Below are positions 298 to 37,946 of a stretch of 64,000 bases of DNA, piece after piece (within the stretch, counting starts at the first letter, position 1; every line of letters starts with the position of its first letter). The notes under the pieces were generated by a model. That model ran no database searches, had not been told where the DNA came from, and worked only from the letters and a program-made list of their open reading frames with translations. The translations under genes and the position numbers were made by a program. This DNA comes from Gammaproteobacteria bacterium. Its GTDB lineage: Bacteria > Pseudomonadota > Gammaproteobacteria > Eutrophobiales > Eutrophobiaceae. The stretch covers positions 480,001-544,000 of the forward strand of contig CBDCTH010000012.1 in the NCBI GenBank assembly GCA_965222155.1, given 5' to 3'.

Positions 298-2153
298 ACA
301 GAGTCGCTATTGCCCAGGTTGATTTGTGTGTCGGCGATATAGACGGTAATACGGAACTGGTTCTTGAATACATTTCCAGGGCCAGAGGCAGCGCCGGCGC
401 AGATACGATAATATTCCCCGAGTTGGCCCTGACCGGTTATCCGCCGGAAGACCTGTTATTGCGTCCTCATTTCCACGTACAGGTGGAACAGGCCTTGCAA
501 CGAGTGATGCACGGGTCGCAGGGCATAAGCGTTGTCCTCGGCTATCCGACGCAAAAAGAGACGCGCCTGTATAACTCCTGCAGTCTGGTCAGGGACGGGG
601 AGGTCGTCACAACCTACCATAAAAGAAACTTGCCCAATTACGGTGTTTTCGACGAAAAACGTTATTTTACCGAGGGAGAAGAGCTGAATCTGGTTGAAAC
701 CCCGGACCTCAAGGTTGCGCTGAGTGTATGTGAGGACCTGTGGACCGAAGACCACGTCAGCGAAGCAGCCGGCGCCGGGGCGGAGCTGCTGATCAATATC
801 AACGCCTCTCCCTACCACACAGACAAATCCAGTGTCAGGGAGGTACTGCTGAAGCGCCGCGCCGTTGACCATAATATAGCGATCATCTACGTCAACCTGG
901 TGGGCGGCCAGGATGAACTGATATTCGACGGTGGTTCCCTGGTCATAGATTGCCGTGGTGAATTCGTCTTCAAAGCCCCGCAGTTTGAACAGGGTCTGTA
1001 CCTGGTGGAGCTGGGACGGGCGGCGGCAGGCGCTATTACCGTGGAAGCCAAATCAGTGCAGTGTCCGCCCCTGGACTTTACCGAGAGCGTCTACCGGGCA
1101 CTGGTGCTTGGCGTCAAGGATTACGTGTTGAAAAACGGTTTCAAGGGTGCGGTTATCGGTTTGTCGGGCGGTATCGACTCGGCGCTGACCCTGGCTATCG
1201 CCGTGGATGCGCTCGGTCCGGAAAACGTTGAAGTGCTGCTGCTGCCGTCCCGTTACACTGCCGCCATGAGTGTCGAAGACGCACAGGAAATGGCCGATAA
1301 GCTGGGTGTCTCCTGCCATACGGTGAGTATTGAAAAACCTTTTTCGGCGTTCGCGGAAATTTTGTCACCGGTTTTCAAGGATCTCCCTATGGCCCGGACT
1401 TCTCACCAGGTGATGCGCCCTTGCTTGTCTTTTTTGCGCCAGTGGGCACGTGTTCCCTCAACCATAGCTACGGCTATGCGTTCGTTCGCAGGCGCCCACT
1501 GGCGCAAAAAATCCGGCGCATTCATTGCGCCCATCCCTGGGCGCAACCCTACGGGCGGCTGTCGCCGTGCAAATCGGCTATCCTGCCGATTTGTCATCGC
1601 ATCACTTGGTGAGAAATCCGAGCAGGACACGACCGAAGAAAATATCCAGGCCCGCTGCCGCGGATTGTTGCTTATGGCCGTATCCAACAAAACCGGCAAG
1701 CTGGTTTTGACGACGGGCAATAAAAGTGAAATGGCGGTGGGTTACGCAACCTTGTACGGGGATATGGCCGGTGGGTTTGCGCCGCTCAAAGACGTGCCGA
1801 AAATCCTGGTCTACAAACTGTCCCGCTGGCGCAACCGGACCGGGGAAATCATTCCGCAACGGATCATCGACCGCCCGCCCAGTGCGGAGTTACGTTTTGA
1901 CCAGAAAGACGAAGACTCCCTGCCTGGCTATGACGTGCTGGATCCGATACTGGAAAAATACATTGAGATGGACCACACTCCGGGTGAGATTATCGAAGCA
2001 GGCTATGACCGGGATACTGTCTACCAGGTGATCAGGCTGGTGGATAAAAATGAATACAAGCGCCGCCAGGCCGCTCCCGGCGTCAGGATCACAGAACGCG
2101 CCTTCGGTCGCGACCGGCGTTATCCTATTACTTCCCGCTACCAGGAAATATAA
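294..2153 (+). CDS. nadE: Glutamine-dependent NAD+ synthetase with a 78-aa in-frame insertion
   Basis: Nitrilase-type N-domain ([28 protein letters not shown]), SGGIDS, TGNKSE..VGY.TLYGD; element inserted at 1393-1622. Confidence 0.96.
1393..1622. mobile_element. Palindromic MITE, copy 1, in frame within nadE
   Basis: TIRs CCCGGACTTCTCACCAGGTGATGCG / CGCATCACTTGGTGAGAAATCCGAG; degenerate 4-bp flanks ATGG/CAGG; homologous to 17535-17773, 25311-25644 and 37803-37946. Confidence 0.9.
1521..1595. repeat. 75-nt multi-hairpin element nested in MITE copy 1
   Basis: Near-identical 75-nt copy at 25417-25491, at a different position within the host MITE. Confidence 0.85.
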
Positions 2154-2171
2154 CCCGCTGATAAAACATAT

Positions 2172-2309
2172 ATCCGCAGATTATGCAGATAAACGCAGAT
2201 AAAAATATCAGGTTATAAATGTTAAATTTAACGTTATTCCTGTACCTTACGCCACTGCACCACATTAACAAGAATCCTTAACCTGTGGAAATCTGCGTAA
2301 TCTGCGGAT
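2172..2309. repeat. Inverted repeat with ~9-nt periodic CGCAGAT units between convergent nadE and bamD
   Basis: ATCCGCAGATTATGCAGAT ... ATCTGCGTAATCTGCGGAT around an AT-rich spacer. Confidence 0.75.
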
Positions 2310-2317
2310 AATATCCT

Positions 2318-3103
2318 TTACTCAACGACTATATCTTTTATGTCGTAATAACCGGGATGGTTCGGGTAGTTCAATTCCAGGACGCGCACGGTGTCCACGG
2401 ACAAGTTCGGCATTTCCAGGATTTTGTAGGTTTTGGCCATCAGCACCAGGGCATCGGGTACCGAAGGCGTGCGCGGATAGGACTCCACCACGGTCCTTGC
2501 CCGGTTGAGCGCCGCCAGGTACGCACCTCTTTTCAAATAATAGTTTGCCACATGTATTTCGTGCCGGGCGAGGCGGTTGCGCAGGAATACCATCCGTTTT
2601 TTCGCGTCCTCGGTGTATTGGCTCTGGGGGTATCTTTCCAGTAGTTCGGAAAAAGCCTGGAATGCAGTCAGGGCGGCGCCCTGGTCGCGCTGGCTTGAAT
2701 CTATCGGTAAAAATCGCTCCGTCAAGCCTTTGCCGCGGTTAAAGTTTACCAGCCCCTTCAGGAAATAAGCATAATCGACGTGAAGGTTCTGGGGATATAG
2801 ACGGATAAAGCGGTCACAGGCCGCCATTGACGACTCAAATTCTTCAGTCTTGTAATAGGCGTAGGCCAGGTCCAGCAGCGACTGCTGCCCGTAAACACCG
2901 AATGGAAAGCGGGTTTCGAGAAACTCGTAATACTCAACCGCCTTGCTGTAATAACCTGAATCGAGCGCACCCTTGGCTTCGGAGTAGAGCCGTTCCACCG
3001 TCCAGTTCTTGGTTTCATTGTTGTCCTTATCGCCAAACCAGGCACAACCGCCAAGCAGCAGGATGACTGCACAAATACAGGGTATAATTCTATGGCTATA
3101 CAT
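2318..3103 (-). CDS. bamD: Outer membrane protein assembly lipoprotein BamD
   Basis: Lipobox LGGC, TPR repeats, LE.RFPFG.Y, YP....VDYA.F.KGL. Confidence 0.95.
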   Translation of the reverse strand: MYSHRIIPCICAVILLLGGCAWFGDKDNNETKNWTVERLYSEAKGALDSGYYSKAVEYYEFLETRFPFGVYGQQSLLDLAYAYYKTEEFESSMAACDRFIRLYPQNLHVDYAYFLKGLVNFNRGKGLTERFLPIDSSQRDQGAALTAFQAFSELLERYPQSQYTEDAKKRMVFLRNRLARHEIHVANYYLKRGAYLAALNRARTVVESYPRTPSVPDALVLMAKTYKILEMPNLSVDTVRVLELNYPNHPGYYDIKDIVVE

Positions 3104-3265
3104 CTTGAGTTCGGTTCATATCGGTCCGCCCCTGAATAATCGCACAGAATAAAAGCCTATAGCAATATTTATGCGTTCAATAGCCCTGATTATGTATTGA
3201 CAGATCGTGATATACTGCTGCTTTTTCCGGTTTTTCAGGCATGAGTGAGTTTGAGGATACACTAA

Positions 3266-3871
3266 ATGAAGAAAGATGGAGTTAACAGTGAGCGACGCCG
3301 TTTTCTCACCACGACTGCATCCGTTGTAGGCGGTGCAGGCGCCCTGGCCACCAGTGTGCCGTTTGTGTCGACGTTGACGCCAAGCGCCAAGGCCAAAGCA
3401 ATCGGCGCCCCGGTTGAAGTCGATATCGGCGATTTGGAGATCGGGGAGCGAAAAATAGTCAAATGGCGCGGTAAGCCGGTCTGGATCCTGCGCCGTGGTG
3501 ATGCGGCCATAGACGAACTCAGCGAGTTGGATGAAGTGGTCAAGGACCCGGCATCAGAAGTCGAACAACAACCGTTTTATGCGAGGAACGAGTACCGTTC
3601 ACAGCGCGCGGAATACCTGATCGTGCTGGGGATTTGCACCCACCTGGGTTGTTCCCCCGTTTACGCCAGAAAAGGTGAAGGGGAAGCCCACCAGCTCGGT
3701 GAAGACTGGCGGGGAGGGTTCTTCTGTCCCTGTCACGGCAGCCGTTTTGACCTGGCCGGCAGAGTTTTCAAAGGTGTGCCGGCGCCCACCAACCTGGTGG
3801 TGCCGCCGCACCAGTACCTGAGCGATACCCGGGTATTGATCGGTGATGATTCGGCTGTCGTCCAGTCATGA
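3266..3871 (+). CDS. petA: Cytochrome bc1 Rieske iron-sulfur subunit
   Basis: Tat motif RRRFL; CTHLGC and CPCHGS. Confidence 0.97.
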   Translation: MKKDGVNSERRRFLTTTASVVGGAGALATSVPFVSTLTPSAKAKAIGAPVEVDIGDLEIGERKIVKWRGKPVWILRRGDAAIDELSELDEVVKDPASEVEQQPFYARNEYRSQRAEYLIVLGICTHLGCSPVYARKGEGEAHQLGEDWRGGFFCPCHGSRFDLAGRVFKGVPAPTNLVVPPHQYLSDTRVLIGDDSAVVQS

Positions 3872-5088
3872 ATAAACGGTTAATGGCATTACGCGACTGG
3901 GTGGACGCGCGCTTTCCGTTGATGCGGTTATGGAATGAGCACCTGGCCCGGTATTACGCCCCGAAAAATTTCAATTTCTGGTATTTCTTCGGCTCATTGG
4001 CCCTGTTCGTCCTGGTGATCCAGATTATTACCGGGATCTGGTTGACCATGAACTTCAAACCGTCCGCGGAACTCGCTTTTGCCTCGGTCGAGTACATCAT
4101 GCGCGACGTGGAGTGGGGCTGGTGGATACGTTACATGCACTCGACCGGCGCTTCCGCATTTTTTATCGTGATCTACCTGCACATGTACCGGGCCATGCTG
4201 TACGGTTCCTACAAAAGGCCCAGGGAGTTGCTCTGGATCATCGGCATGCTCATTTACTTCACACTGATGGGAGAGGCGTTCTTCGGCTATTTGCTGCCGT
4301 GGGGGCAGATGTCTTACTGGGGCGCCCAGGTAATCATCTCGCTGTTCGGCGCGTTGCCGATTGTCGGAGACGAACTTGCCTTGTGGATACGGGGCGATTT
4401 CGTCGTATCGGACGTGACCCTGAACCGATTTTTCTCCCTGCACGTCATCGCCTTTCCCCTGGTGCTGTGCGGCCTGGTCGGCGCGCACCTGATCGCCTTG
4501 CACGAGGTTGGCTCAAATAATCCGGATGGAATTGAAATAAAGAACTACAAGGACGCCGACGGTATCCCGCTGGACGGCATCCCCTTTCATCCTTACTACA
4601 CCGTCAAGGATATTGTCGGGGTCGTGGTTTTTTTGATCATTTTTTGTGCGGTTGTATTTTTCAAACCCGAGATGGGCGGCTATTTTCTCGAAGCAAACAA
4701 TTTTATCCCTGCCGACCCGCTCAAGACACCGGAACACATAGCGCCGGTGTGGTATTTCACCCCGTTCTATGCCATTTTGCGGGCCGTGCCGAGCCAGGTC
4801 GGTGGTGTTATCGCCATGGGAGCGGCAACGTTGCTGTTCTGTTTTCTCCCCTGGCTGGACCGGAGTCCGGTCAAGTCCATCCGCTACCGGGGCCGGAATT
4901 ACAAGATTGCCCTGGCTTTATTCACGGTCAGTTTTATTGCATTGGGCTGGCTGGGGCTGCAAGCCGCTACGACGAACTACACCTGGATGGCGCGCTTGTT
5001 TACAGTGATTTATTTCCTGTTTTTCCTGTTGATGCCGTTTTATACCGGCTCCGATAACGATAAACCCGTACCGGACAGGGTGACATGA
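3868..5088 (+). CDS. petB: Cytochrome b
   Basis: YLLPWGQMSYWG, PVWY motif, heme-ligand histidines. Confidence 0.97.
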   Translation: MNKRLMALRDWVDARFPLMRLWNEHLARYYAPKNFNFWYFFGSLALFVLVIQIITGIWLTMNFKPSAELAFASVEYIMRDVEWGWWIRYMHSTGASAFFIVIYLHMYRAMLYGSYKRPRELLWIIGMLIYFTLMGEAFFGYLLPWGQMSYWGAQVIISLFGALPIVGDELALWIRGDFVVSDVTLNRFFSLHVIAFPLVLCGLVGAHLIALHEVGSNNPDGIEIKNYKDADGIPLDGIPFHPYYTVKDIVGVVVFLIIFCAVVFFKPEMGGYFLEANNFIPADPLKTPEHIAPVWYFTPFYAILRAVPSQVGGVIAMGAATLLFCFLPWLDRSPVKSIRYRGRNYKIALALFTVSFIALGWLGLQAATTNYTWMARLFTVIYFLFFLLMPFYTGSDNDKPVPDRVT

Positions 5089-5882
5089 TTATTACTCGTA
5101 TTCCAATGCCGAAATGGGGACGGAATTTAATTCCGTCCCCTGTTATTTTGCTGTTGCTGCTGGCGACAAACCCTTGCCTGGCTGCCGGCAACAACGGCCA
5201 CATGCTCCACGCTGATGTTGACCTGTCCGATAAGAAATCATTACAGCGCGGCGCCCGTACCTTTGTAAATTATTGCCTCAGTTGCCATTCCGCCTCGTTT
5301 ATGCGCTACAACCGCCTGGGTAGAGACCTGCACATAAGTGAGGACATCCTGAAGGAAAATTTCATGTTCGGGACGGACAAAATGGGCGATACCATGACAG
5401 TTGCCTTGAACAGGCAGGAAGCAGAAAAATATTTCGGGGTAGCTCCTCCGGATCTTTCAGTAAGCGCGCGCGCGCACGGCGCAGACTGGTTGTATACCTA
5501 CCTGATGACGTTTTATCGGGATACATCCCGCCCCAATGGCGTCAACAACCTGGCTTTCGAGGATACTGCAATGCCCCACGTACTCTGGCAGTTACAGGGT
5601 TGGCAGGAACCCGTGTATAAGGAAGTAACTCATCGGGACGGCAGGATAAGCAGGATGATCGACTACCTGGAAGTTGTGAACGAACCGGTCGACAAGCCGA
5701 AACCCTACCAGGATGAAAGCTATGAGGAGACGATAACCGATCTGGTGAATTTCATGGTCTACCTGGGGGAGCCTATCAAACTTAAACGCAAGACAATCGG
5801 CGCCTGGACCATAGCGTATCTTCTGGTGTTACTGGTTTTGGTATACCTGCTCAAGCGGGAATACTGGCGCGACGTACATTGA
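5085..5882 (+). CDS. petC: Cytochrome c1
   Basis: CLSCH, PPDLS, AMP, C-terminal TM helix ending EYWRDVH. Confidence 0.95.
   Translation: MIITRIPMPKWGRNLIPSPVILLLLLATNPCLAAGNNGHMLHADVDLSDKKSLQRGARTFVNYCLSCHSASFMRYNRLGRDLHISEDILKENFMFGTDKMGDTMTVALNRQEAEKYFGVAPPDLSVSARAHGADWLYTYLMTFYRDTSRPNGVNNLAFEDTAMPHVLWQLQGWQEPVYKEVTHRDGRISRMIDYLEVVNEPVDKPKPYQDESYEETITDLVNFMVYLGEPIKLKRKTIGAWTIAYLLVLLVLVYLLKREYWRDVH
5116..5140. repeat. GGGGAC-family palindrome within the petC signal-peptide region
   Basis: GGGGACGGAATT-T-AATTCCGTCCCC, perfect 12-bp arms. Confidence 0.8.
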
Positions 5883-5889
5883 ACAACAA

Positions 5890-6528: not shown

Positions 6529-6600
6529 TACAGCGGCGTATATTTGGGGTCAGTCAGGGCAAACGCATACTTTTGAATTCAGATGTTTCTGCCCGATTCC

Positions 6601-6695: not shown

Positions 6696-6760
6696 GGGCG
6701 GTGTTTTCCGGTTGGTTTCCTGTCTTCTGCAACAGAATCCAAAAGTATGCGGTTGCCCTG

Positions 6761-11310: not shown

Positions 11311-11440
11311 GGGGACACAATACTTAATTATCCCACCGTGAATTCTGCTGAATTAAGTATTGTGTCCCCATAACTTAAATTCTGCTGAATTAAGTATTGT
11401 GTCCCCATAACTCCCCGGCACTCCCCCCATAACTCCCTCC
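11311..11440. repeat. GGGGACAC...GTGTCCCC palindrome with tandemly duplicated right arm
   Basis: GGGGACACAATACTTAATT / AATTAAGTATTGTGTCCCC; right arm present twice. Confidence 0.8.
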
Positions 11441-11444
11441 CCGT

Positions 11445-11685
11445 CGTCATGCCGGGCCTGACCCCCCGTCCGTCATGCCGGGCTTGACCCCCCCTCCGTC
11501 ATGCCGGGCTTGACCCCCCGTCCGTCATTCCGGGCTTGACCCGGAATCCAGTGAAACAAGGTGTCGCCTCCGGCGACACGTTATCTGACTGGATTTCCGT
11601 CCTTTGGTTCGTCAACGGCACATCCCCCTGCTTACAGCATGCAGGGGCAGGCTATGTGCCACTACTCGGCATTCGCCGGAATGAC
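11445..11685. repeat. Four 26-nt tandem units leading into a GTCATTCC-family element
   Basis: CGTCATGCCGGGCTTGACCCCCC units at 11445, 11471, 11497 and 11523; closed by CGGAATGAC at about 11685. Confidence 0.8.
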
Positions 11686-11770: not shown

Positions 11771-12146
11771 GGGAGTCAGCCGGGCAATCGCTGTCGGAAC
11801 GGATTGATTTTTTATCAATTCCGGTTCGGCAGAGGAAAGTCCGGGCTCCACAGGGGCAGGGCGCCAGGTAATTCCTGGGCGGCGCGAGTCGACGGAAAGT
11901 GCAACAGAAAGTATACCGCCCGGCCACTTACCCCAAGTGGCCGGGTAAGGGTGAAATGGTGCGGTAAGAGCGCACCGCGTGGCTGGCAACAGGCACGGCA
12001 TGGTAAACCCCGCCTGGAGCAAGGCCAAATAAGGGGGCGATAATGTGGCCCGCATTGTCCCCGGGTAGGCTGCTGGAGGTGTATGGTGACGTACATCCTA
12101 GATGAATGATTGTCCTGGACAGAACCCGGCTTACAGGCTGACTCCC
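11771..12146 (+). ncRNA. rnpB: RNase P RNA, type A
   Basis: GAGGAAAGTCCGGGCTCC, AGTGCAACAGAAAG, GGTAAACCCC, ACAGAACCCGGCTTA; P1 GGGAGTCAGCC/GGCTGACTCCC; rsmI-rnpB-mraZ synteny. Confidence 0.97.
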
Positions 12147-12202
12147 ACCTTGTTCCCCCGGTTTATTCCTGAATCCACACTCTTTTCTTAATAAAGTTTT
12201 AC

Positions 12203-12305
12203 CGTAAATCCAGGACACCCATCGTAAATCCAGGACACCCATAAATTCACTTTGCAGAAAGAAACGGGCCGGGTCTCAACCTGCCTAATTTTATGGGTGT
12301 CCTGA
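12203..12305. repeat. CAGGACACCCATAAA...TTTATGGGTGTCCTG REPIN-like element with a duplicated left end
   Basis: Same family as 45556-45628 and 45851-45925, opposite orientation. Confidence 0.8.
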
Positions 12306-12396
12306 ATTTGGCTTCCCTGAATTTGGCTTCCCTGAATTTGGCTTCCTGAATTTGGCTTCCTGAATTTGGCTTCTGAATTTGGCTTCTGAATTTGGG
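12301..12396. repeat. Tandem ladder of TGAATTTGGCTT(C)n units
   Basis: Seven units with spacings 15,15,14,14,13,13 nt. Confidence 0.9.
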
Positions 12397-12563
12397 CTGA
12401 CTCCATTTTCTCCAGATATAAATCTGTCCCCTTTTCTTAATAAAGTTTTTCAACTTCATAATATAAAAAGACTTATATCTCAAATATTCACGGTTTGTTC
12501 CTTTCTCACCGGCTAAGTATTTGTAAGACGGGCAAATTTTTGCCGGAAAGTTACAAGATTTGC

Positions 12564-14331: not shown

Positions 14332-16040
14332 AAACACGCGTCCCTGAATCCGGCTATACCGGTCGCAAGTGGTTCCTGCTGGTGTTGTTCGGTATTGCTG
14401 CAGCCGCGGTTGTCTGCCGGGTGTTCTATCTGCAGATATTGAACAAGGATTTTCTGATAAACGAAGGCGACGCAAGAGCCATCCGCAGCGTTACCATCCC
14501 GGCATACCGGGGCACGATTACCGACCGGAATGGCGAGCCCCTGGCCGTCAGCACGCCGGTGGCGTCGATCTGGGCCGTGCCGGGGAAAGTCCTGGATTCA
14601 GCCGCCGACCTGAGTGAACTGGCCGGTCTGCTGGACACGTCGGTAGCTGAGATACGCCAGTTCCTGGCCGGCCGGCAGGACAGGAATTTCGCATATATGA
14701 AGAGACACGTGCCACCCGACGTAGCGCGCCGGGTGCGGGCGCTGAAAATTCCGGGGATCAATACCAGCAAGGAGTACAAGAGATATTATCCGGTCGGTGA
14801 GGTGGCTTCTCACCTGGTCGGTTTTACCAATGTCGATGATGAGGGACAGGAGGGCATAGAACTTGCCTTCGATGACTGGTTGCGGGGCGTTCCGGGTAAA
14901 AAACGGGTATTGAAGGACCTGTATGGTTCAGTCGTCAAGGATATTGAAAACATCAAACAACCCGTTCCCGGCCAGTCCCTGACCCTGGCGCTGGACCAGC
15001 GCCTGCAATACCTGGCATACAGGGAATTGAAATCAGCGGTGATAAACCACAAGGCCAGGGGCGGGATGCTGTTGTTGATCGGAGTCAAGACCGGTGAAGT
15101 GCTGGCCCTGGCGGTACAGCCACCGTTCAATCCCAATAATCGCGCGCATCTTAAAGGCAACCTGTACCGGAACCGTGTGGTAACGGATGTATTCGAACCC
15201 GGTTCCAGCATGAAACCGTTCACCATCGCGGCGGCGCTGATCTCCGGGCTTTACCAACCGGAAACCATGATCGATACAGGCCCCGGACGTATGACAATCG
15301 GCCGTTATTCGATCAGTGACCTTAACAATTACGGGACCTTGAGCATCAGTGACGTGATCCGCAAGTCGAGTAACGTCGGCACCACAAAAGTCGCGCTGGC
15401 ACTGGGTCCGGAACGGCTTTGGGAGTTACATCATAAGATCGGTTTCGGCAGCCTGACCATGAGCGAATATCCGGGAGAAGCGGCGGGGACGCTCAATAAT
15501 TATGCCGACTGGTCCAGGCTGGACCTGGCGACGGCTTCATACGGGTATGGCATCTCGGTGACCGCCATGCAGTTGGCGCAGGCCTATTCCGTGATTGCGT
15601 CCGGCGGTCTGTTATATCCGATCAGCTTTCAGAAAGTGACCGCTGTTCCCGCCCACCGGCGGGTCATGCCGGAAATGGTTGCGTTTGAGGTGAACAGGAT
15701 GATGCGGGCAGTGATCGGGCCGGGTGGCAGCGGCAGGCGGGCGGCGGTCAACGGTTACCATGTTGCCGGTAAAACAGGCACCGTGCATAAGACGTCGGAC
15801 TCCGGTTATGCCGAGGACAGTTATGTTTCACTGTTTGCGGGATTTGCGCCGGCAACGGAACCTCGCCTGGTTCTGGTCGTCGTCATCGATGATCCCGGAA
15901 CAGGGCAGTATTTCGGTGGCCTGGTCGCGGCGCCGGTGTTCGCCAATGTGATGGAGGGGGCGTTGCGGATAATGAATATTCCCCCTGATAACCTGATTGG
16001 ACTGAAGCAACAGACGTTGCTTGTGAACAATACCAGGTGA
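14328..16040 (+). CDS. ftsI: Peptidoglycan D,D-transpeptidase FtsI (PBP3)
   Basis: RG.ITDRNG, EPGSSMK, SSN, KTGT. Confidence 0.96.
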   Translation: MKTRVPESGYTGRKWFLLVLFGIAAAAVVCRVFYLQILNKDFLINEGDARAIRSVTIPAYRGTITDRNGEPLAVSTPVASIWAVPGKVLDSAADLSELAGLLDTSVAEIRQFLAGRQDRNFAYMKRHVPPDVARRVRALKIPGINTSKEYKRYYPVGEVASHLVGFTNVDDEGQEGIELAFDDWLRGVPGKKRVLKDLYGSVVKDIENIKQPVPGQSLTLALDQRLQYLAYRELKSAVINHKARGGMLLLIGVKTGEVLALAVQPPFNPNNRAHLKGNLYRNRVVTDVFEPGSSMKPFTIAAALISGLYQPETMIDTGPGRMTIGRYSISDLNNYGTLSISDVIRKSSNVGTTKVALALGPERLWELHHKIGFGSLTMSEYPGEAAGTLNNYADWSRLDLATASYGYGISVTAMQLAQAYSVIASGGLLYPISFQKVTAVPAHRRVMPEMVAFEVNRMMRAVIGPGGSGRRAAVNGYHVAGKTGTVHKTSDSGYAEDSYVSLFAGFAPATEPRLVLVVVIDDPGTGQYFGGLVAAPVFANVMEGALRIMNIPPDNLIGLKQQTLLVNNTR

Positions 16041-17563
16041 TGATGTTGCCCGTAAACAAGCGTCAAAGCGGTTTTCCATTGCAGATGCTGCTGGAAGGTC
16101 TGACTGATGCACGGGTCGAGGGTGATATTTCAGTTCAGGGGATCAGTTCGGACAGCCGTGAAATTCGCCCGGGTGATTTGTTTCTCGCCTGCCGGGGACC
16201 GAACACCCGCGGCAGCCTGTTCATCAACGCTGCGCTCAAGGCAGGGGCCGCGGCAGTGGTCGTGGATGAGGAATTGCTGTCCGACCTGGACCGGTGCCGG
16301 CCGGCGCTGTTTCCGGTAGCGGATTTACGCGCTAAACTGGGATTGATTGCCGGGCGGTTTTACGGCGATCCCACAAAACAGCTGCACCTCACCGGCGTTA
16401 CGGGAACCAACGGCAAAACCAGCGTAAGCTGGTGGCTGGCGAAACTCCATTCACTGCTGACGCGGACACAGGCGGGTTTGATCGGCACCCTGGGATACGG
16501 GTGTTATCCGCGCCTGCAATCCGGGCTTAATACAACCCCGGGCGCAGTCAGTTTACAGCGCTTGTTTGCCGGCTTCGTCGAAGCGGGCGCGGACACGGCG
16601 TTCATGGAGGTATCATCCCATGCCCTGGATCAGGGGCGCGTCAGCGAAGTCGATTTCGACGTTGCCGTGTTCACCAACCTGAGCCGGGACCATCTGGATT
16701 ACCACCGGAGCCTGGACGAGTACTTCCGCGCCAAACAAAAACTGTTTGCATTCAATTCATTGCGCGCTGCCGTGGTGAACTGTGATGACCCATACGGGCA
16801 GGCAATACTACGCGCTCTGCCGGCGGGCATAGAGGCGATCAGTTACGGTTTATCAGGCAATCCGCAACAGTCGGTTCAGCCTCTCGTCAGGGCAAGGCCG
16901 GCGCCGGGCGCTGAGCTTATCCTGGATATTACCAGTCCCTGGGGCAACGGCCAGGTGCGGCCGGGGGTAACGGGAAAATTCAACGTCGGCAATATACTGG
17001 CGCTGGTTTCGGTGCTGGGGCTGGCAGGGTTCCCGCTTGAGCGCATCCTGGAAAAGCTGGACAACATCGGCCCGGTACCGGGTCGTATGGAGAGTTTCAG
17101 ACGCGCAGACGGCGCCCAAATCGTCGTTGATTACGCCCATACCCCCGCCGCCCTGGAACAGGCCCTGGCAAGTCTGCGGGAATGTTGTGCGGGGCGGTTG
17201 ATCTGTGTTTTCGGCTGTGGCGGCGAACGGGATAAGGAAAAGCGGCCGCAGATGGGAGAACTGGCGGAACAACTTTCCGACGAAGTAATTTTAACTGATG
17301 ACAATCCGAGGTCTGAAGCCGGCGATGACATTATCGAGGCCATCCTCTCCGGCATAACCGCCAAGGGTTGCGCCACTATAGAGCGCAACCGTTCCAGGGC
17401 CATCGAGCTGGCGCTGGGGCGGGCCGGGCCCGCTGACGTGGTATTGATTGCCGGCAAGGGACATGAAACCTGTCAGGAAATTGCAGGTACGCGCTATCCC
17501 TTCAACGATCTGCAGCAGGTCAGGCAGTTGCTAGCCCGGAATTCTCACCAGGTGATGCGATGA
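16037..17563 (+). CDS. murE: UDP-MurNAc-Ala-Glu:mDAP ligase; C-terminus derived from a MITE
   Basis: GVTGTNGKT, MEVSSH, DYAHTP, DNPR, AGKGHE. Confidence 0.96.
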   Translation: MMMLPVNKRQSGFPLQMLLEGLTDARVEGDISVQGISSDSREIRPGDLFLACRGPNTRGSLFINAALKAGAAAVVVDEELLSDLDRCRPALFPVADLRAKLGLIAGRFYGDPTKQLHLTGVTGTNGKTSVSWWLAKLHSLLTRTQAGLIGTLGYGCYPRLQSGLNTTPGAVSLQRLFAGFVEAGADTAFMEVSSHALDQGRVSEVDFDVAVFTNLSRDHLDYHRSLDEYFRAKQKLFAFNSLRAAVVNCDDPYGQAILRALPAGIEAISYGLSGNPQQSVQPLVRARPAPGAELILDITSPWGNGQVRPGVTGKFNVGNILALVSVLGLAGFPLERILEKLDNIGPVPGRMESFRRADGAQIVVDYAHTPAALEQALASLRECCAGRLICVFGCGGERDKEKRPQMGELAEQLSDEVILTDDNPRSEAGDDIIEAILSGITAKGCATIERNRSRAIELALGRAGPADVVLIAGKGHETCQEIAGTRYPFNDLQQVRQLLARNSHQVMR

Positions 17564-17773
17564 TCGCGCCGGATTTTTGCCGCCAGCGGGTGCCTGCGAC
17601 CGAAAGCATAGCCGTAGTTCTGGTTGAGGGAGCACGTGCCCGCTGGCGGCAAAAAGACAAGCGAGGGCGCATCAAGCGTAGTTTATTCAGATGATATTGT
17701 AGACATGTTACCGCAACCTATTGACAGCAAACAAGTATTAGATGGCAACAAGCGGCTTGGTGAGAATTCCGGG
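17535..17773. mobile_element. Palindromic MITE, copy 2, in the 3' end of murE (reverse orientation to copy 1)
   Basis: TIRs CCCGGAATTCTCACCA / TGGTGAGAATTCCGGG; flanks CTAG/CTGG. Confidence 0.9.
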
Positions 17774-22843: not shown

Positions 22844-23912
22844 CCCGATCATGATCATGGCGGGGGGGACCGGCGGACATGTTTACCCGGCGCTGGCAGT
22901 GGTTGATTACCTGCGCGCACAGGACATACCACTGTTCTGGCTGGGAACGCCGCGCGGGATCGAGAACCGGGTTGTGCCGGAACAGGGAATAGAACTGTTG
23001 ACCGTCAGGGTGAGCGGGGTACGCGGCAAGGCAATTTCAAGCAAGCTGGTTGCGCCACTGAAAATACTGATAGCGATACTCCAGGCCCTGTCCATTTGTA
23101 TTCGGCGGCGGCCGGCGGCGGTCCTCGGAATGGGCGGGTTCGCCAGCGGTCCCGGCGCTATTGCAGCGTGGTTGTTACGCATCCCGTTATTGATCCATGA
23201 ACAGAACAAGGTCGCCGGTACGACCAACAGGATACTGTCCCGGTTCGCCGTGAAGGTGATGCAGGGGTTTCCGGATACTTTCAAGGCCGGCGCCAGGGTT
23301 GTTACCACGGGCAATCCCGTGCGGCGCGAGATCGTGGGACTGCCCGGACCGAAAATCGCCGGGACGCCGAACCGGCCTAATGTCCTGGTGCTGGGCGGTA
23401 GCCTGGGCGCGCAACAACTGAACCGGGTTGTGCCCCTGGGCCTGAACAGGTTGCAACGCAGGTTAAAGGTAAACGTCTGGCATCAATGCGGAGAGAAAAA
23501 CCAGATTGAGACGCAGCGTCTCTATGGGGGTCTGCAACTGGACGAGGTCAGGATCGATGCGTTTATTACCGATATGGCATCAGCCTACCGCTGGGCGGAT
23601 ATCGCCGTGTGCCGGGCCGGCGCGCTGACGATTGCGGAATTATGCGCGGCGGGACTGGCATCGATACTGATACCGTTTCCCCACGCCATAGATGACCATC
23701 AGACAGCCAATGCCCGTTACCTCAGTGACTCCGGCGCCGCGCTACTGCTCCCGGAAACTGAATTGACCAAAGCCAGGATCGAGGACTTGTTGTGGCAGCT
23801 TTGCAGCACGGAGAACAAACTGTTCGAGCTGGCGCAAAAAACCCGGCTGCATGCCTATCCGGATGCCGCGCAGGCAGTAGCTTCATTGTGCCTGGAGCAA
23901 GCTTATGCCTGA
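22833..23912 (+). CDS. murG: Lipid II GlcNAc transferase
   Basis: AGGTGGH, HEQN, GNPVR, GGSLGA, RAGALT. Confidence 0.96.
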   Translation: MKANPIMIMAGGTGGHVYPALAVVDYLRAQDIPLFWLGTPRGIENRVVPEQGIELLTVRVSGVRGKAISSKLVAPLKILIAILQALSICIRRRPAAVLGMGGFASGPGAIAAWLLRIPLLIHEQNKVAGTTNRILSRFAVKVMQGFPDTFKAGARVVTTGNPVRREIVGLPGPKIAGTPNRPNVLVLGGSLGAQQLNRVVPLGLNRLQRRLKVNVWHQCGEKNQIETQRLYGGLQLDEVRIDAFITDMASAYRWADIAVCRAGALTIAELCAAGLASILIPFPHAIDDHQTANARYLSDSGAALLLPETELTKARIEDLLWQLCSTENKLFELAQKTRLHAYPDAAQAVASLCLEQAYA

Positions 23913-25335
23913 TGGGCACAACATGGGTCGCGTCAGGCATATCCATTTTGTCGGTATTGGCGGAGCCGGCATGAGCGGGATAGCCGAAGTCCTGCATAAC
24001 CTGGGCTATACGGTGTCAGGCACGGACCTGAAGCAGGGCAACAGCACGGAACGGCTTGCAGACATGGGTGTCGAGGTGCGCTTTGAACACGAAGCGGAAT
24101 GTGTGAACGGCAGCGACGTGGTTGTTTATTCAAGCGCGATCCCGGCAGACAATCCGGAGTTGTCGGCAGCGCGCCGACAACGCATACCGATCATCCCGCG
24201 GGCCGAGATGCTGTCTGAACTGATGCGTTTCAGGGAAGGGGTTGCGGTAGCCGGCACCCACGGCAAGACGACAACAACCAGCCTGATCGCCAGCCTGCTG
24301 GCGGAAGGCATGTTCGACCCGACCTATATCATCGGTGGGCGCTTGAACATGACAGGTTCCCATGCCCGGCTCGGCAAGGGGAAATACATGGTAGCCGAGG
24401 CGGATGAGAGTGATGCCTCCTTCCTGCACCTGCAACCTGTCTATGCCGTGCTGACGAATATCGATGCCGATCACCTGGAGTACTGTGGCGGCAGTTACCA
24501 GGCGTTGCAAAACAACTTTATAGACTTCCTGCACTGCCTGCCGTTTTACGGTCTGGTGGTCATCTGCAGCGATGACGCCGGTATCCGCGGTATCGTCACC
24601 CGCATAAACCGGCCTTATGTCACCTATGGGATTGATTCCGACGCGGATTACCGGGCGGAAGCGATTCAATATGACGGGCCGACAACCCGGTTCAACATAG
24701 TGCGCCGCAACCAGGATGACGCGTTCCGGGTAACGCTGAACCTGCCGGGCCGGCATAACGTCCTGAATGCCCTGGCGGCAGTGGCGCTGGCTATCGAACT
24801 GGGCGTGTCGGAACAGGCAATAAGCGCCGGATTGGCAAACTTCCAGGGCATAGACCGCAGGAGTTCGATCCTGGGTGATATCCATATCGACGGCAAGACC
24901 GTATTGCTTATCGACGATTATGCCCACCACCCCAGTGAAATAGCCGCTATCAATAATGCTCTTGCTGACGGTTGGCCCGGCAGGAAAGTGGTCGTCGTGT
25001 TTCAACCGCACCGGTATACCCGTACCCGGGATCTTTTCGAAGAGTTCTGCCAGATATTGTCGGAACTCGACAGCTTGATTCTGCTTGACGTCTATCCCGC
25101 CGGGGAGCGCCCCATCAAGGGCGCCGACAGCCGTTCCCTGAGCCGGGCGCTCAGGGTCAGGGGCAAGGTGGAGCCTATTCTCGTCAACAATGAAACGGAA
25201 TTGCTGGCCGTGCTGGAAAACCTTACGGCGCAGAACGATATCCTGTTGCTGCTGGGCGCAGGAGATATCAGCGCCCTCGGTAGCCGGTTGCTCGACGTGT
25301 ACGGCACCAGCCCACATTTCTCACCAGATCGCTAG
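23905..25335 (+). CDS. murC: UDP-MurNAc:L-Ala ligase; C-terminus derived from a MITE
   Basis: GIGGAGMSG, GTHGKTTT, EADESD, DDYAHHP, FQPHRYTR. Confidence 0.96.
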   Translation: MPDGHNMGRVRHIHFVGIGGAGMSGIAEVLHNLGYTVSGTDLKQGNSTERLADMGVEVRFEHEAECVNGSDVVVYSSAIPADNPELSAARRQRIPIIPRAEMLSELMRFREGVAVAGTHGKTTTTSLIASLLAEGMFDPTYIIGGRLNMTGSHARLGKGKYMVAEADESDASFLHLQPVYAVLTNIDADHLEYCGGSYQALQNNFIDFLHCLPFYGLVVICSDDAGIRGIVTRINRPYVTYGIDSDADYRAEAIQYDGPTTRFNIVRRNQDDAFRVTLNLPGRHNVLNALAAVALAIELGVSEQAISAGLANFQGIDRRSSILGDIHIDGKTVLLIDDYAHHPSEIAAINNALADGWPGRKVVVVFQPHRYTRTRDLFEEFCQILSELDSLILLDVYPAGERPIKGADSRSLSRALRVRGKVEPILVNNETELLAVLENLTAQNDILLLLGAGDISALGSRLLDVYGTSPHFSPDR

Positions 25336-25644
25336 TTGCCCTCCGATAATTTATTGCTATCAATACATAATGATAATTCACTTACTATATAGACATTACA
25401 GACTGCGCTTGATGCGTTCATTGCATCCATCCCTGGACGCAACCCTACGGGCGGCTATCGCCGTGCAAATCGGCTGTCCTGCCGATTTGTCTCGCTTGTC
25501 TTTTTCCCGCCAACGGGTACGTGCTCCCTCAACCAGAGTCCCAGCTATGCTTTCGGTCCCCGTATCAAGTACGGGGCAGACTCCGGCACCCGTTGGTGGG
25601 AAAAATCCTGCGCGATCATCGCATCACCTGATGAGAAATGCGGG
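25311..25644. mobile_element. Palindromic MITE, copy 3, at the murC/murB junction with two nested inserts
   Basis: TIRs CCCACATTTCTCACCAG / CTGATGAGAAATGCGGG; nested inserts at 25417-25491 and 25558-25582. Confidence 0.88.
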
Positions 25645-25660
25645 CTTCGGGGCGATTGAG

Positions 25661-26584
25661 ATGCTTATGGAAACTGTTTCGACACGCCTGAACAGCCGGC
25701 CTGAGAAAGCGCCGGGGCGCGGCCTGCTCAAAACAGGCGAGAAGATGTCCAGGCATACTTCATGGAAAGTCGGCGGACCGGCAGACCGGTTTTATGTCCC
25801 TGCCGATGAGGACGACCTGGCCGGCTTCCTCGCGGCACTGGCGGATGACGAACCTGTTACCTGGATTGGCCTGGGCAGTAACGTACTGGTACGGGACGGC
25901 GGTATCAGGGGGACGGTCATTTCAACAGCCGGCATGAAGCAAAGGCTTGAGTTGATTCCCGACAACGCAGTACGGGCGGGCTGTGGCGTGGCTTGCGCAA
26001 AAATCGCCCGGTTCAGCGCCGGGGCCGGATTGGCCGGCGCTGAATTCCTGGCGGGTATCCCGGGTTCAGTGGGGGGTGCGCTGGTCATGAATGCCGGCGC
26101 CTTCGGCGTCGAGACCTGGAGCATCGTCGAACAGGTGGAAACGGTTACGCGTAACGGCAGGCGGGTTCAAAGACCGGGCGCTGACTTTGCAACCGGTTAC
26201 CGCCAGGTCGACCTGGCGGATGGCGAATGGTTCGTCAGCGCGCTGTTGCGGCTTCAAGCCGATGCTGACGGAAAAGCGCAGCAGCGTATCAGGGAATTGC
26301 TGGCCAGAAGAACTGAAACCCAGCCGACCGGGAAGTTCAGTTGCGGCTCCGTATTCAAGAATCCCGCGGGTGATTTCGCCGGGCGCCTGATCGAGCAGTG
26401 CGGTTTGAAAGGCTTTGCCGTTGGCGATGCCCATGTGTCGGACAAACATGCGAACTTTATCATCAATGCCGGCAAGGCGCGCGCAGGGGATATCGAGGCC
26501 CTGATATTACACATACAGGCAACCGTTAAGGAGATGACGGGTATCAGATTAATCCCGGAAGTAAGAATCATCGGTGCATCATAG
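25661..26584 (+). CDS. murB: UDP-N-acetylenolpyruvoylglucosamine reductase
   Basis: HTSWKVGGPAD, G.GSNVLVRDGG, GIPGSVGGA..MNAGA, GSVFKNP, KHANF; frame stays open upstream through the MITE. Confidence 0.94.
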   Translation: MLMETVSTRLNSRPEKAPGRGLLKTGEKMSRHTSWKVGGPADRFYVPADEDDLAGFLAALADDEPVTWIGLGSNVLVRDGGIRGTVISTAGMKQRLELIPDNAVRAGCGVACAKIARFSAGAGLAGAEFLAGIPGSVGGALVMNAGAFGVETWSIVEQVETVTRNGRRVQRPGADFATGYRQVDLADGEWFVSALLRLQADADGKAQQRIRELLARRTETQPTGKFSCGSVFKNPAGDFAGRLIEQCGLKGFAVGDAHVSDKHANFIINAGKARAGDIEALILHIQATVKEMTGIRLIPEVRIIGAS

Positions 26585-31636: not shown

Positions 31637-31691
31637 CAGCGGTTCCTGTTGACAGGGTTTTGGGAGCTGTCTGTCCGTTCCGAGGGCCAGG

Positions 31692-32184: not shown

Positions 32185-32206
32185 GAGGCGTTAACAGGAA
32201 CTGCTG

Positions 32207-32650: not shown

Positions 32651-32679
32651 TATCTCGAATAGCAATCTGGTTATGGCAA

Positions 32680-33564: not shown

Positions 33565-33646
33565 TTCTTTATTTTTTCAATCCGTTCTGTTTTAATCAGC
33601 CCTCACTTCCCGGCTGTTGCCGTGGCGTATTAATGGGATATTTCAC

Positions 33647-36337
33647 GTGATCAGAACTGTTTTCACAAAAATTTTCGGCAGCAGGAATTTGCGTGTCCTG
33701 AAGAGGATGCAAAAGACCGTAAGTCGGATCAATGACCTCGAGGATAGCGTATCCCGGCTCGAGGATGCCGAATTTCCGCAAAAAACCGCACAGTTGAAAT
33801 CCAGGTGGGAACAGGGTGAAACCCTGGAAGAGCTCTTGCCGGAGGCATTTGCCCTGGTGCGCGAAGCGGGCAGGAGAACCCTGAATATGCGGCACTTTGA
33901 CGTACAACTGCTTGGCGGTATCGTATTGCACCAGGGCAACATCGCGGAAATGCGTACCGGTGAAGGTAAGACGCTGGTGGCGACTTTGCCTGCATATCTT
34001 AATGCCCTGACCGACGCCGGCGTGCATATCATTACCGTGAACGATTACTTGGCGCAGCGTGATGCGGAATGGATGGGGGCTATCTATTCTTTCCTGGGAA
34101 TGTCGACGGGAGTGATCATTTCCGGCCTCAATAATGAGGAACGGAAACGGGCCTATGCCACCGACATCACCTATGGAACCAATAATGAATTCGGTTTCGA
34201 TTACTTGCGGGACAATATGAAGTTCCACAGTGAGGATCAGGTTCAGCGCAGTTTAAAATACGCAATAGTTGACGAAGTGGATTCGATACTCATCGATGAG
34301 GCGCGTACTCCGCTTATCATTTCAGGTATGGTGGATGACAGGTCCGACCTGTACCTGAGCATGAACAAGATAGTGCCCCGATTAAAGTTGCAAAAAGAGG
34401 AAGATGATGGCGGCGATTATGTGATCGATGAAAAGAGCAAGCAGGCTTACCTGACGGAAACAGGCCATGAGCGGCTGGAAAAACTGTTGTTGGAAAACAA
34501 TATCATGCAGCGCGGCATGAGTTTATATGATCCGGTCAATATTCCCATACTGCATCACTTGAATTCCGCGCTGCGAGCCCATGCCTTGTTTCACAATAAC
34601 GTCGAATATATTGTCCAGAACGATGAAGTGGTCATCGTCGATGAATTCACCGGCAGGACCATGCCGGGCAGGCGCTGGTCGGATGGGTTGCACCAGGCCA
34701 TTGAGGCAAAGGAAAATGTGCCGATTCAGAATGAAAATCAGACCCTGGCAACCATAACCTACCAGAATTACTTCCGGCTTTATGAAAAGCTGGCCGGTAT
34801 GACGGGTACGGCTGATACCGAAGCATACGAATTTCAACAGATATACGGCCTTGAGGTAGCTGTCGTTCCGACTCATCTGCCGATGGTGAGAGATGACCAG
34901 CCGGACATGATATACCTGACCGTCGGGGAGAAATTTGCGGCAATAATCGACGATATAAGGTCGTGCCAGGCACGCGGACAGCCCGTTCTTGTGGGTACGG
35001 TTTCCATAGAAGTATCGGAATACCTGTCCAATCAACTGAAGAAGCAGAAAATTAAACACCAGGTTTTGAATGCCAAGCATCATGAAAGGGAAGCCGAAAT
35101 TATCGCCCAGGCCGGACGCCCCGGGGCGGTGACGATCGCAACGAACATGGCCGGCCGGGGTACCGATATTGTGCTTGGCGGAAACCTGGATGCGGAAATC
35201 AAAGCCCTGGACAATGCCGATGCGGCAGTACTGAATAAAGTTCGTAGCGCCTGGCAGGAGCGCCATGAGAAGGTGGTCGAAAATGGCGGATTGCGCATAA
35301 TCGGCACGGAACGACATGAATCCAGGCGCGTTGACAACCAGTTAAGAGGACGCTCGGGACGCCAGGGTGACCCGGGGTCAAGCCGGTTCTATATTTCTCT
35401 TGAAGATGATTTGATGCGTATCTTTGCATCGGAACGGGTTGCCTCCATCATGCAGAGACTGGGAATGGAAGAAGGCGAGGCTATCGAATCGAACCTGGTA
35501 ACCAAGGCGATTGAGAACGCACAGAGGAAAGTCGAGGCCCATAACTTCGATATTCGCAAACATCTGCTGGAATATGATGACGTTGCAAACGACCAGCGTA
35601 AGGTGATTTATGAATGGCGTCATGAACTGCTGGGTGAGAACGACATTTCCACTGATATTCAAACGATGCGGGAAGACGTGGTAAAAGGTATTTTTGCAAT
35701 TCATATCCCTCCCGGCAGCCCGGACGAAACATGGAATACCTCCGGTTTGACGGAGGCATTGGTGAATGAATTAAACGTACATTTGCCGATACGACAGTGG
35801 CTGGACGAGTATGCTTCCATGGATGAAGAGGCGTTGCTTGCCAGGGTTATTGATAATGCTACGAAAGATGTGGAAACAAGACATGCCGACCTGTCGGAGG
35901 AATTAGTCCGCAGGGTTGAAAAGGGTCTGATGCTGGATACCCTGGACCGGCACTGGAAAGAACACCTGGTTGCGATGGATCACTTGAGGCAAGGCATCGG
36001 GCTGCGCGGATACGCCGCAAAAAACCCCAAACAGGAATACAAGAAGGAAGCATTCGCCATGTTCAGCGACATGCTGGAAAATATCAAATCTGACGTTATT
36101 AGCGTGTTGGCAAAAATACACGTCAGGGAAGACCAGGATATTAAGGTATTACAGGACCGCCCCCAACCTGCGGAGATGCAGTTTAATCATCCGGACGCAC
36201 CCAGTGCCCTGGGTAAGCAGGGCGAAAGCCAGGGACAAAAACCCTATATCCGCAATGAAAGAAAGATCGGCCGGAATGAGCCCTGTCCCTGCGGCTCCGG
36301 GAAAAAATATAAACATTGTCATGGTAAGCTCAACTGA
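33647..36337 (+). CDS. secA: Preprotein translocase SecA
   Basis: [30 protein letters not shown] motif [13 protein letters not shown]. Confidence 0.98.
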
Positions 36338-36396
36338 TCCGGTGGTGACACTGTGGGGACAGGTTCGGGTGGGCTTTTCAAAACTCTTACAGAAAA

Positions 36397-36515
36397 GGGG
36401 GACAGATTTATTTTTGCTCAGGACGCCCATTCCGGCGCAGGCCGGAATCCAGTCAATTTTATGAATCATTTTAAGGAAAACCGGTTTAACTGGATACCGG
36501 GTCAAGCCCGGAATG
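36397..36515. repeat. Repeat cluster: GGGGACAGATTTATT half-site plus CATTCCGG..GGAATCCAG paired element
   Basis: Matches the families at 52283, 57865 and 6601. Confidence 0.7.
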
Positions 36516-36541
36516 GCGGATTGCTGTTTTCTTGATGAATT

Positions 36542-37759
36542 ATGGCTATCGGATTGACACCTCCCGCTACGCTCCTGCCGGTTGACGGCGTTCTGGCTGC
36601 CGCCTGTTCGGCAGGTATTTATGGTAAGCCCCGGGATGACCTGGCGCTTTTTGCTGTCTGTGAAGGCGCCACGGTCAGCGCCGTGTTTACCCGTAACCGT
36701 TTTTACGCAGCGCCGGTTGCCGTTGCCGCAACACACCTGCAGCATGGTTCTGTCAAATTCCTGCTGGTTAATGCCGGCAATGCCAATGCCGGCACGGGCG
36801 CCAGGGGTATCGACGATACCATGCGGGTCTGTCAGGCCCTGGCGGAGCAGGGCAGTTGCCCGGTTGAAGCGGTATTACCGTTTTCCACCGGGGTAATTGG
36901 AGAATACCTGCCGGTCGGGAATATATGCAATGCGTTGCCGGGGTTGTACGACGCTTTGGCCGATGACGCCTGGCTCAATTGCGCCCGGGCGATAATGACG
37001 ACGGATACGCTGCCAAAAGGCTGCTCCGCCCGGTTTTCCGCTGATGCGGGAGTGGTTACCGTGACCGGTATAGCAAAGGGCTCAGGCATGATAAAACCGG
37101 ATATGGCAACCATGCTCGCGTTTATCGCCACGGATGCCGGCGTGGAACAAAGCTTATTGGACCGCATATTGGCGTCGGCGCTAGAACAATCATTCAACCG
37201 GATCTGTGTTGACGGTGATACCTCCACCAATGATGCCTGTGTGCTGGTTGCTACCGGCAAGAGCCCTTGCCGTATTATCGATGAAAACAGTCCGGCATAC
37301 GGCTTGCTGGAAGAACAAATCACGCAGGCATGTATCCGCCTGGCCCAGGCAATTGTCAGGGATGGCGAAGGCGCGACAAAATTCGTAACGATCCAGGTTG
37401 ATAACGCCCGAAGTGAAGCAGAGTGTGCTGCTGTAGCGGATGCCATATCAACATCTCCACTGGTCAAAACCGCGTTATATGCTGCTGACCCCAACTGGGG
37501 CAGGATATTGGCCGCTATCGGACGCAGCAAGGCCGGCAATCCGGACATCGACAGGGTTTCGGTATATCTGAACGAGGTATGTGTAGTCGAAAATGGCGCC
37601 AGGGCAAAAGACTACACCGAGGAACAAGGGGTCGCCGCCATGCAGTCCGATGAAATTCTGCTGCGCATCAACTTGAACAGGGGTGAGCTGAGCGGCCGCT
37701 ACTGGACCTGTGACCTGTCCCATGACTACGTCACGATCAACGCGGAGTACCGAACCTGA
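36542..37759 (+). CDS. argJ: Bifunctional ornithine acetyltransferase
   Basis: KGSGMI.PDMATML, DGDTSTND, DGEGATK, NAEYRT. Confidence 0.97.
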   Translation: MAIGLTPPATLLPVDGVLAAACSAGIYGKPRDDLALFAVCEGATVSAVFTRNRFYAAPVAVAATHLQHGSVKFLLVNAGNANAGTGARGIDDTMRVCQALAEQGSCPVEAVLPFSTGVIGEYLPVGNICNALPGLYDALADDAWLNCARAIMTTDTLPKGCSARFSADAGVVTVTGIAKGSGMIKPDMATMLAFIATDAGVEQSLLDRILASALEQSFNRICVDGDTSTNDACVLVATGKSPCRIIDENSPAYGLLEEQITQACIRLAQAIVRDGEGATKFVTIQVDNARSEAECAAVADAISTSPLVKTALYAADPNWGRILAAIGRSKAGNPDIDRVSVYLNEVCVVENGARAKDYTEEQGVAAMQSDEILLRINLNRGELSGRYWTCDLSHDYVTINAEYRT

Positions 37760-37802
37760 GGCTTTTGCCACAGGGGACGCGGAGAGCACAGAGTATTATC
37801 AA

Positions 37803-37946
37803 TCCGGATTTCTCAGGTCTAATGTTGCCATCGGATAGATGTCCGCTGTTACTGAGTTATGGTCATCTGCTCACCATGTCACCATTACAGACTTCACTTG
37901 ATGCGCCCTCGCTGGTCTTTTCGCCGCCAACGGGCACATGCTCCCT
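37803..37946. mobile_element. Palindromic MITE, copy 4, truncated at the island boundary
   Basis: TCCGGATTTCTCA end, 67-nt region, CTTGATGCGCCCTCGC...GGGCACATGCTCCCT, then similarity ends abruptly. Confidence 0.75.

Follow-up and report, generated by a model that had tools for sequence, protein, structure and literature searches.

We analysed a window of 64,000 nucleotides (positions 480,001 to 544,000 of contig CBDCTH010000012.1, Gammaproteobacteria bacterium assembly GCA_965222155.1; G000:C12:480001-544000 in the genome:contig:position notation used here), in which an earlier sequence-only reading had reported four copies of a miniature inverted-repeat transposable element (MITE) with IS1380-like ends. 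Judged by its sequence, the family is an IS1380-type MITE and this identity is secure, while the 158-bp core of the element is, by comparative alignment, one long irregular hairpin in which pairing, and not the sequence of the arms, is conserved across subfamilies and species. The family is probably a non-autonomous one that is moved in trans by IS1380 transposases, with a constraint on the hairpin that would have a single polarity and would act at proliferation. The analysis documents an abundant, genus-wide IS1380-type MITE, and its strand-specific pairing provides a cheap, testable hint that a one-strand hairpin matters in a transposon class not known to need it.

The ends of the MITE (CCCGSATWTCTCACC) and its 4-bp YTAR target duplication are shared with full-length IS1380-family elements of the genome and the genus, in agreement with the sequence-only reading on both the MITE family and the IS1380 origin of its ends. 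In the same genome, two full-length copies of a 1768-bp element and a full-length one of 1641 bp carried CCCGCATATCTCAC or CCCGGATATCTCAC at both ends with CTAG flanks, and their open reading frames (ORFs) matched Pfam PF13701 (3.5e-120) and, in NCBIfam, NF033539 ‘IS1380 family transposase’ (1.4e-93). Over its first 14-17 nt the MITE was the same as elements with genes for NF033539/PF13701 proteins, whether these came from this genome, from sister genomes or from other phyla. Intact IS1380 transposase genes were found in 10 of 22 sister genomes, and of six intact copies fetched, five shared these ends and were flanked on either side by TTAA, CTAG or CTAA. In relatives from other phyla (at most 67% identity), the end motif flanked the gene on both sides, 1.64-1.77 kb apart, in 9 of 48 cases, one of which carried exactly the CCCGGATTTCTCAC of the MITE. 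The flanks had been said to resemble CTAG; this tetramer was present, but the duplication is broader and comprises the YTAR sequences CTAG, TTAA, TTAG and CTAA. Flanking 4-mers were identical in 33 of 92 elements bounded by inverted ends (see below) and matched at three or more positions in 61, compared to 0 and 4 of 92, respectively, for neighbouring control 4-mers. The IS1380 profile matched 20 places in the genome, none of them within the window, and the IS1380 remnant suspected at about 41.9 kb was not found there: the ORF at this position had no Pfam match and its sequence was in no way insertion sequence (IS)-like. None of the IS1380 transposase genes of this genome is intact (elements at G000:C4:218571-220338, C12:1242097-1243864 and C12:3474028-3475668); the two best copies have one TAG in common, and a further copy is divided into two parts. 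Mobilisation by Y1 transposases, and with it membership in the repetitive extragenic palindromic (REP)/REPIN class, was considered and rejected, the motifs of the element being absent within 1.2 kb of the three Y1 genes. A plasmid collection gave no match to the element, and none of the papers listed by full-text searches for IS1380 together with MITEs describes an IS1380-type MITE in its title or abstract, genus-specific literature lying outside this scope.

The family is repeated far more often than chance would allow. With the four window copies as query, blastn returned 784 matches that merged into 200 loci in the 4.55-Mb genome, and the 17-nt end pattern occurred at 438 genomic sites when up to four mismatches were allowed (163 with up to two). 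Stretches of 100-600 bp with inverted ends, from which one chance pair was removed by eye, yielded the 92 bounded elements with lengths of 117-590 bp, most commonly 239 bp (18 copies) and 158 bp (6 copies). A transposase-sized ORF is impossible at these lengths, and the family is short, present in many copies and devoid of a transposase gene. Inspection of all bounded copies revealed a modular element, with a 158-bp core ordered as terminal repeat, spacer, 17-bp stem arm, 48-nt ‘loop’, second arm, spacer and terminal repeat; the terminal inverted repeats measure 19-25 bp and start with CCCG, the core also holds a GATGCG/CGCATC helix and a 4-bp TCGC/GCGA helix, and the ‘loop’ closed by the 17-bp stem is conserved. 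The 239-bp form consists of this core plus an AT-rich insert of 81 bp, on one arm only, between CTCACCAG.. and GATGCG.

The less conserved part of this insert is the 67-nt segment that had been described as variable and of fixed length. We confirmed that 67 nt lie between GTTGCC and CTTGATGCG in copies 2, 3 and 4, and that the segments of copies 2 and 3 are identical at 38 of 67 positions. Across the 76 segment-bearing ends, the length was conserved but not strictly fixed (GATGCG ended 106 nt from the start of the element in 45, 107 in 9 and 108 in 17). The segment belongs to an insert with conserved motifs and does not constitute a special variable cassette. The site resembling that of integration host factor (IHF), which had been reported at the same offset in the segments, is weak: the strict WATCAANNNNTTR occurred in 10 of the 76 ends, and most copies have TGTCAAT at this position. 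No sigma-70-type promoter was detected in the AT-rich segment by a scan of copies 2 and 3; a conserved TGnTAATnT, noted on reading the alignment, could be an extended -10 box. The scan for terminator-like hairpins found one compared to 0.5 expected, i.e., chance level.

Covariation was evaluated in an alignment of 77 distinct copies from 17 genomes (this genome contributed 25 and 16 others 52), taken from full-length matches and canonical copies. The stem covariation reported earlier was strong, with two-sided change in 12 of the 17 stem pairs, and the three stem pairings quoted for the window copies were all exact, including the single G-T of copy 3. It was, however, not a property of the 17-bp stem alone, since the terminal inverted repeats covaried equally (two-sided change in 12 of 19 pairs). 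When terminal repeats, GATGCG helix, stem and small inner hairpin were taken together, 95.7% of the cells paired compared to 85.6% after shuffling, and 30 of 48 pairs changed on both sides. RNAalifold, applied to the reverse-complement alignment, predicted one long irregular hairpin that added the TCGC/GCGA helix (12 two-sided changes) and an inner extension of the stem. For 55 of its pairs, pairing was seen in 98.6% of the cells, compared to 89.7% in shuffles (none of 500 reached the observed value) and 32-48% when partners were slid by 1-3 columns, and 30 of the 55 changed on both sides. Of the 34 distinct stems in this genome, 14 were perfect and all 14 differed in sequence. Individual copies showed single stem mismatches, and four stem mismatches were retained in three recombinant copies. 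These recombinants (G000:C4:298133-298517, C7:29701-29962 and C10:53390-53651) have arms from different subfamilies and apparently recombined in the loop. The C7 and C10 copies share the same flanks, and the two may represent a single locus that was assembled twice.

An alternative explanation for such compensated arms is that they are kept alike by mutation without selection on structure, through a hairpin-templated strand switch or conversion between the arms. Copying of this kind would account for the many subfamily differences that are pair flips or transversions (CG/GC, UA/AU) without a wobble intermediate, for adjacent double changes such as CCAG to CTGG, and for the terminal repeats covarying as well as the stem. 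We nevertheless regard it as unlikely, because uncompensated mismatches persist in single copies, with four in the stem of the three recombinants, and because the unlike spacers (12 and 14 nt) and the one-sided 81-bp insert are kept genus-wide, while free conversion would erode both. Moreover, conversion on either strand would not yield the 3:1 excess of one mismatch class that is described below. Joint change of the two arms could also reflect protein recognition, in that both ends and the internal repeats must fit the same transposase variant and change with it. Terminal positions 5, 7 and 8 indeed vary between species jointly at both ends, the IS ends of the genus vary at the same positions, and piggyBac-type elements have sub-terminal repeats that are bound by the transposase. 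This explanation appears highly improbable to us, as at least 14 perfectly paired stem variants in one genome face few IS1380 genes, all of them broken, and MITE and IS ends within a genome do not track each other exactly; nor does it predict a G·U-type tolerance restricted to one strand.

Such a tolerance was observed when the two strands were compared. On the strand used by the sequence-only reading, the same 55 pairs were only 93.9% paired, and the mismatched cells comprised 59 A·C and 17 G·T (about 3:1). The excess was also found after clustering at 90% identity (46 A·C and 15 G·T) and in the 34 distinct stems of this genome (17 and 5). The unpaired cells are therefore mostly G·U/G·T on the complementary strand, which points to the fold of one specific single strand. 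This favoured strand, the complement of the one read, has the AT-rich insert on its 3' side, and two nearly invariant G·U pairs lengthen the stem on this strand only. RNA folding gave -118.5 kcal/mol (z -9.5) for the complementary strand compared to -97.5 kcal/mol (z -6.6) for the other. The orientation of the copies was random with respect to the adjoining gene (24 versus 22) and to the direction of replication as judged by GC skew (38 versus 49). Neither host transcription nor replication thus explains the asymmetry, which is a property of the element.

The wobble asymmetry is a classic sign of an RNA fold, and the hairpin might be used by the host as RNA: from its place just after stop codons in operons, it could stabilise the message upstream, serve in its processing or bind an RNA-binding protein. 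Consistent with such a role, copies lie at gene ends inside operons (murE/murF and murC/murB), both strands fold far better than shuffles, and sequences of the family occur in metatranscriptome contigs. A host function is nonetheless quite improbable in our view, since the tolerance of wobble pairs is confined to one strand although copies face their neighbouring genes at random. In addition, insertions vary between genomes with 97-98% identical flanks and one copy is mostly deleted in a sister genome (see below). The lack of a sigma-70-type promoter in the two copies scanned also speaks against it, as do the searches of Rfam 15, in which RNase P RNA was the only window match at gathering score and the region 25250-25700 had no match at E values up to 1.

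In the reading that we favour, IS1380-family transposases would mobilise the MITE in trans, and only copies whose single strand of the favoured polarity folds back on itself would found new subfamilies; the folding strand may be single-stranded DNA during mobilisation, or RNA. Selection would act at proliferation, with resident copies decaying by uncompensated mutation, and spread is the most likely point of constraint because the differences between subfamilies are compensated while single copies carry mismatches. Several observations weigh against this reading. The AT-rich segment is biased in the same direction, although more weakly (approximately 1.6-fold per base, calculated from counts over rough base counts), so that part of the 3:1 asymmetry could be mutational and not selective, and transitions in the loop are balanced in raw number (42 versus 45), with a mixed picture per base. 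The covariation counts refer to cells and clusters, not to events on a tree, and are inflated by the kinship of the copies. The RNA data are contig-level metatranscriptomes, from which strand, ends and level are unreadable and in which depth is inflated by copy number. Mobilisation in trans rests on the intact copies of sister genomes, the transposases of this genome being broken, and an origin of the MITE by internal deletion of an IS was rejected, as there is no detectable similarity beyond the ends. Finally, the usual view of such DDE transposases is that the DNA they move is double-stranded, and we know of no place in their mechanism for a strand-specific single-stranded stage. The more far-reaching proposal, that the spread of a non-autonomous DDE derivative of the IS1380/piggyBac type depends on a folded single strand of fixed polarity (a single-stranded DNA or RNA stage), is put forward as tentative and rather unlikely. 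If true, it would imply such a stage in a family believed to use double-stranded DNA only, and the 158-nt core would be one structured molecule, not two protein-binding ends.

Among 22 other genomes of the genus, 20 carried the element, as did none of 19 genomes outside the genus (two from the same family and 17 from the same class), and 50 of 58 elements parsed from the fetched relatives measured exactly 239 bp. Comparison with these relatives also confirmed the earlier statement that all three full copies of the window lie in coding sequence, as empty sites were found for each of them. Only this genome has the nadE insertion: NadE is uninterrupted, with its two halves abutting, in 20 of the 22 genus relatives (in the remaining two, the gene is split across contigs or gave a weak match only), with empty sites seen in the sister genomes G019 and G013. 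The murE/murF junction is empty in G019, which has CTGG at the site and flanks that are 97-98% identical, and a metatranscriptome contig of a relative lacks copy 2, joining window position 17522 to 17773 with seven other letters between. The murC/murB junction is empty in G014 and G013, while the corresponding site of G019 (L154, G019:C1:539940-540100) retains a 22-nt remnant made up of 14 nt of one end and 8 nt of the other; this remnant adds nine codons in frame, and the murC stop again overlaps the murB start. Although every IS1380 transposase gene of the present genome is interrupted, a sister genome whose flanks are 97-98% identical lacks two of the three window insertions. In another relative (G010; loci L062, L067 and L068), 239-bp copies were arrayed head to tail in groups of two or three, with a period of 243 bp and a 4-bp flank shared between neighbours.

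Within the window, all four copies were recovered where the sequence-only reading had placed them (Table 1). They differ in length because other small elements nest in them.

Table 1 Coordinates of the MITE copies in the window and of their parts
Feature	Window position	Strand	Description
MITE copy 1	1393..1622	+	230 bp; without the 81-bp arm insert; inside nadE
Copy 1 stem, 5' arm	1430..1446	+	TTTTTTGCGCCAGTGGG
Copy 1 stem, 3' arm	1495..1511	+	CCCACTGGCGCAAAAAA; complementarity to 5' arm perfect
Nested ‘B’ mini-element in copy 1	1520..1595	+	~75 nt, three hairpins; between stem-loop module and right end
MITE copy 2	17535..17773	-	239 bp, canonical form
Copy 2 stem arm	17574..17590	+	TTTTTGCCGCCAGCGGG (read on the window + strand)
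Copy 2 second stem arm	17639..17655	+	CCCGCTGGCGGCAAAAA
Copy 2 67-nt AT-rich segment	17677..17743	-	within the 81-bp insert on one arm only
MITE copy 3	25311..25644	+	334 bp; canonical form plus nested B element and 23-nt hairpin insert
Copy 3 67-nt segment	25341..25407	+	
Nested B mini-element in copy 3	25417..25491	+	
Copy 3 stem, 5' arm	25501..25517	+	TTTTTCCCGCCAACGGG
Small hairpin insert in copy 3 loop	25559..25585	+	CCCGTATCAAGTACGGGG...; shared with 251-, 262- and 336-bp forms elsewhere in the genome
Copy 3 stem, 3' arm	25589..25605	+	CCCGTTGGTGGGAAAAA; one G-T
MITE copy 4	37803..37946	+	left end degenerate; truncated inside the loop after GCTCCCT

Copy 1 lies in frame within nadE (ORF 294-2153) and, together with its 4-bp duplication, adds 234 nt, i.e., 78 codons (1393-1626). 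No full-length nadE other than the interrupted gene was found in the genome, and the 78-residue insert was absent in the 20 relatives with both halves. Copy 2 landed four codons before the original stop of murE, 14 nt upstream of murF, and murE (16037-17563) now terminates 29 nt inside the element. Similarly, copy 3 landed approximately four codons before the stop of murC (23905-25335), upstream of murB (ATG at 25661), and the C-termini of both MurE and MurC now consist of element-encoded residues. Genome-wide, an ORF of at least 100 codons reads into 48 of 184 element sides; in 21 of these the stop coincides with the TAR of the duplication, in 13 it lies within 60 nt, in 8 deeper and in 4 just before the element, and 2 read through. 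With a looser definition, the stop fell at the duplication in 18 of 74 sides compared to 73 of 917 random YTAR sites. Surviving copies concentrate at gene ends, mostly at the stop or a few codons ahead of it, because the YTAR target contains a stop codon (TAA or TAG), and insertions elsewhere in genes are presumably lost. A general in-frame design as in the Rickettsia palindromic elements was considered, as element length plus four was divisible by three in 43 of 92 elements, yet read-through occurred in only 2 of 92 (nadE and C12:629652) and the idea was rejected. Landing on gene ends thus rewrites C-termini and uncouples the overlapping genes of the mur operon, and the copy in nadE adds 78 residues to NadE.

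The nested B element was found at several sites of the MITE in both orientations, even inside stem arms, and also on its own, with 15 of 57 long B matches outside any bounded copy. Its subfamilies retain the hairpins with different sequences, and in 105 of about 107 terminal hairpins of the CAAATC...GATTTG type the loop contains GGA on one strand; the element had no Rfam match. Annotation is affected as well, since much of the repeat content of the genus is accounted for by the MITE family together with the smaller elements that it harbours, and these give rise to spurious ORFs. A REP-like palindrome (GGGGACAGATTTGAAATCTGTCCCC) was present in the window at 45981-46009, 52311-52339, 63750-63783 and 5108-5143, and its 12-nt half occurred at 862 genomic places on both strands with up to two mismatches; the palindrome is also inserted in some MITE copies. 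Other repeats of the window comprise four 171-bp tandem repeats (39550-40362; 78-79% identical) within a 981-residue ORF (38398-41343), which encodes Gly/Asp-rich nonapeptide-like repeats close to the C-terminus. Short tandem repeats lie on both sides of the RNase P RNA gene (11772-12149), at 11341-11539 and 12288-12408, with 26-nt units and a 35-nt exact duplicate upstream and seven units of 13-15 nt (CTGAATTTGGCTTC) downstream.

Among known systems, the Correia/NEMIS elements of Neisseria and the ERIC/IRU elements of enterobacteria are imperfect palindromes of 100-160 bp that resemble MITEs and whose RNA folds upon co-transcription. For Correia elements, a sub-terminal IHF site has been reported and TA is duplicated, whereas the IHF-type motif is weak in the present MITE; no sequence similarity to these elements was seen, although no search was aimed at it. 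The REPINs of Pseudomonas, which are REP doublets, resemble the MITE in being non-autonomous, abundant and hairpin-forming, and they provide a precedent for compensated hairpins in mobile DNA (PMC3116915). They are, however, tied to Y1 (RAYT) transposases and single-stranded DNA transposition without target duplication, in contrast to the DDE-type ends and 4-bp duplication of the MITE. The piggyBac elements have ends that start with CCC and unequal spacers between terminal and sub-terminal repeats. IS1380 transposases serve as the prokaryotic outgroup in work on the piggyBac transposases, and piggyBac duplicates TTAA (PMC10813416). TTAA is one of the four YTAR targets of the MITE, but unlike eukaryotic piggyBac the MITE is bacterial and has a looser target, CTAG being as common as TTAA. 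The IS1380-family ISs themselves (e.g., IS1247 and ISEcp1) have ends starting with CC or CCC and a similar short target duplication, as in the MITE. Table 2 of PMC3281130 lists IS1247 with 1672 bp, inverted repeats of 16/13 and direct repeats of 5. The MITE shares the CCCGSATATCTCAC ends that are found, here as in other phyla, on either side of IS1380-profile transposase genes, but differs from these ISs in having no transposase gene, a length of 158-239 bp compared to about 1.7 kb, an unrelated interior and a 4-bp duplication at YTAR.

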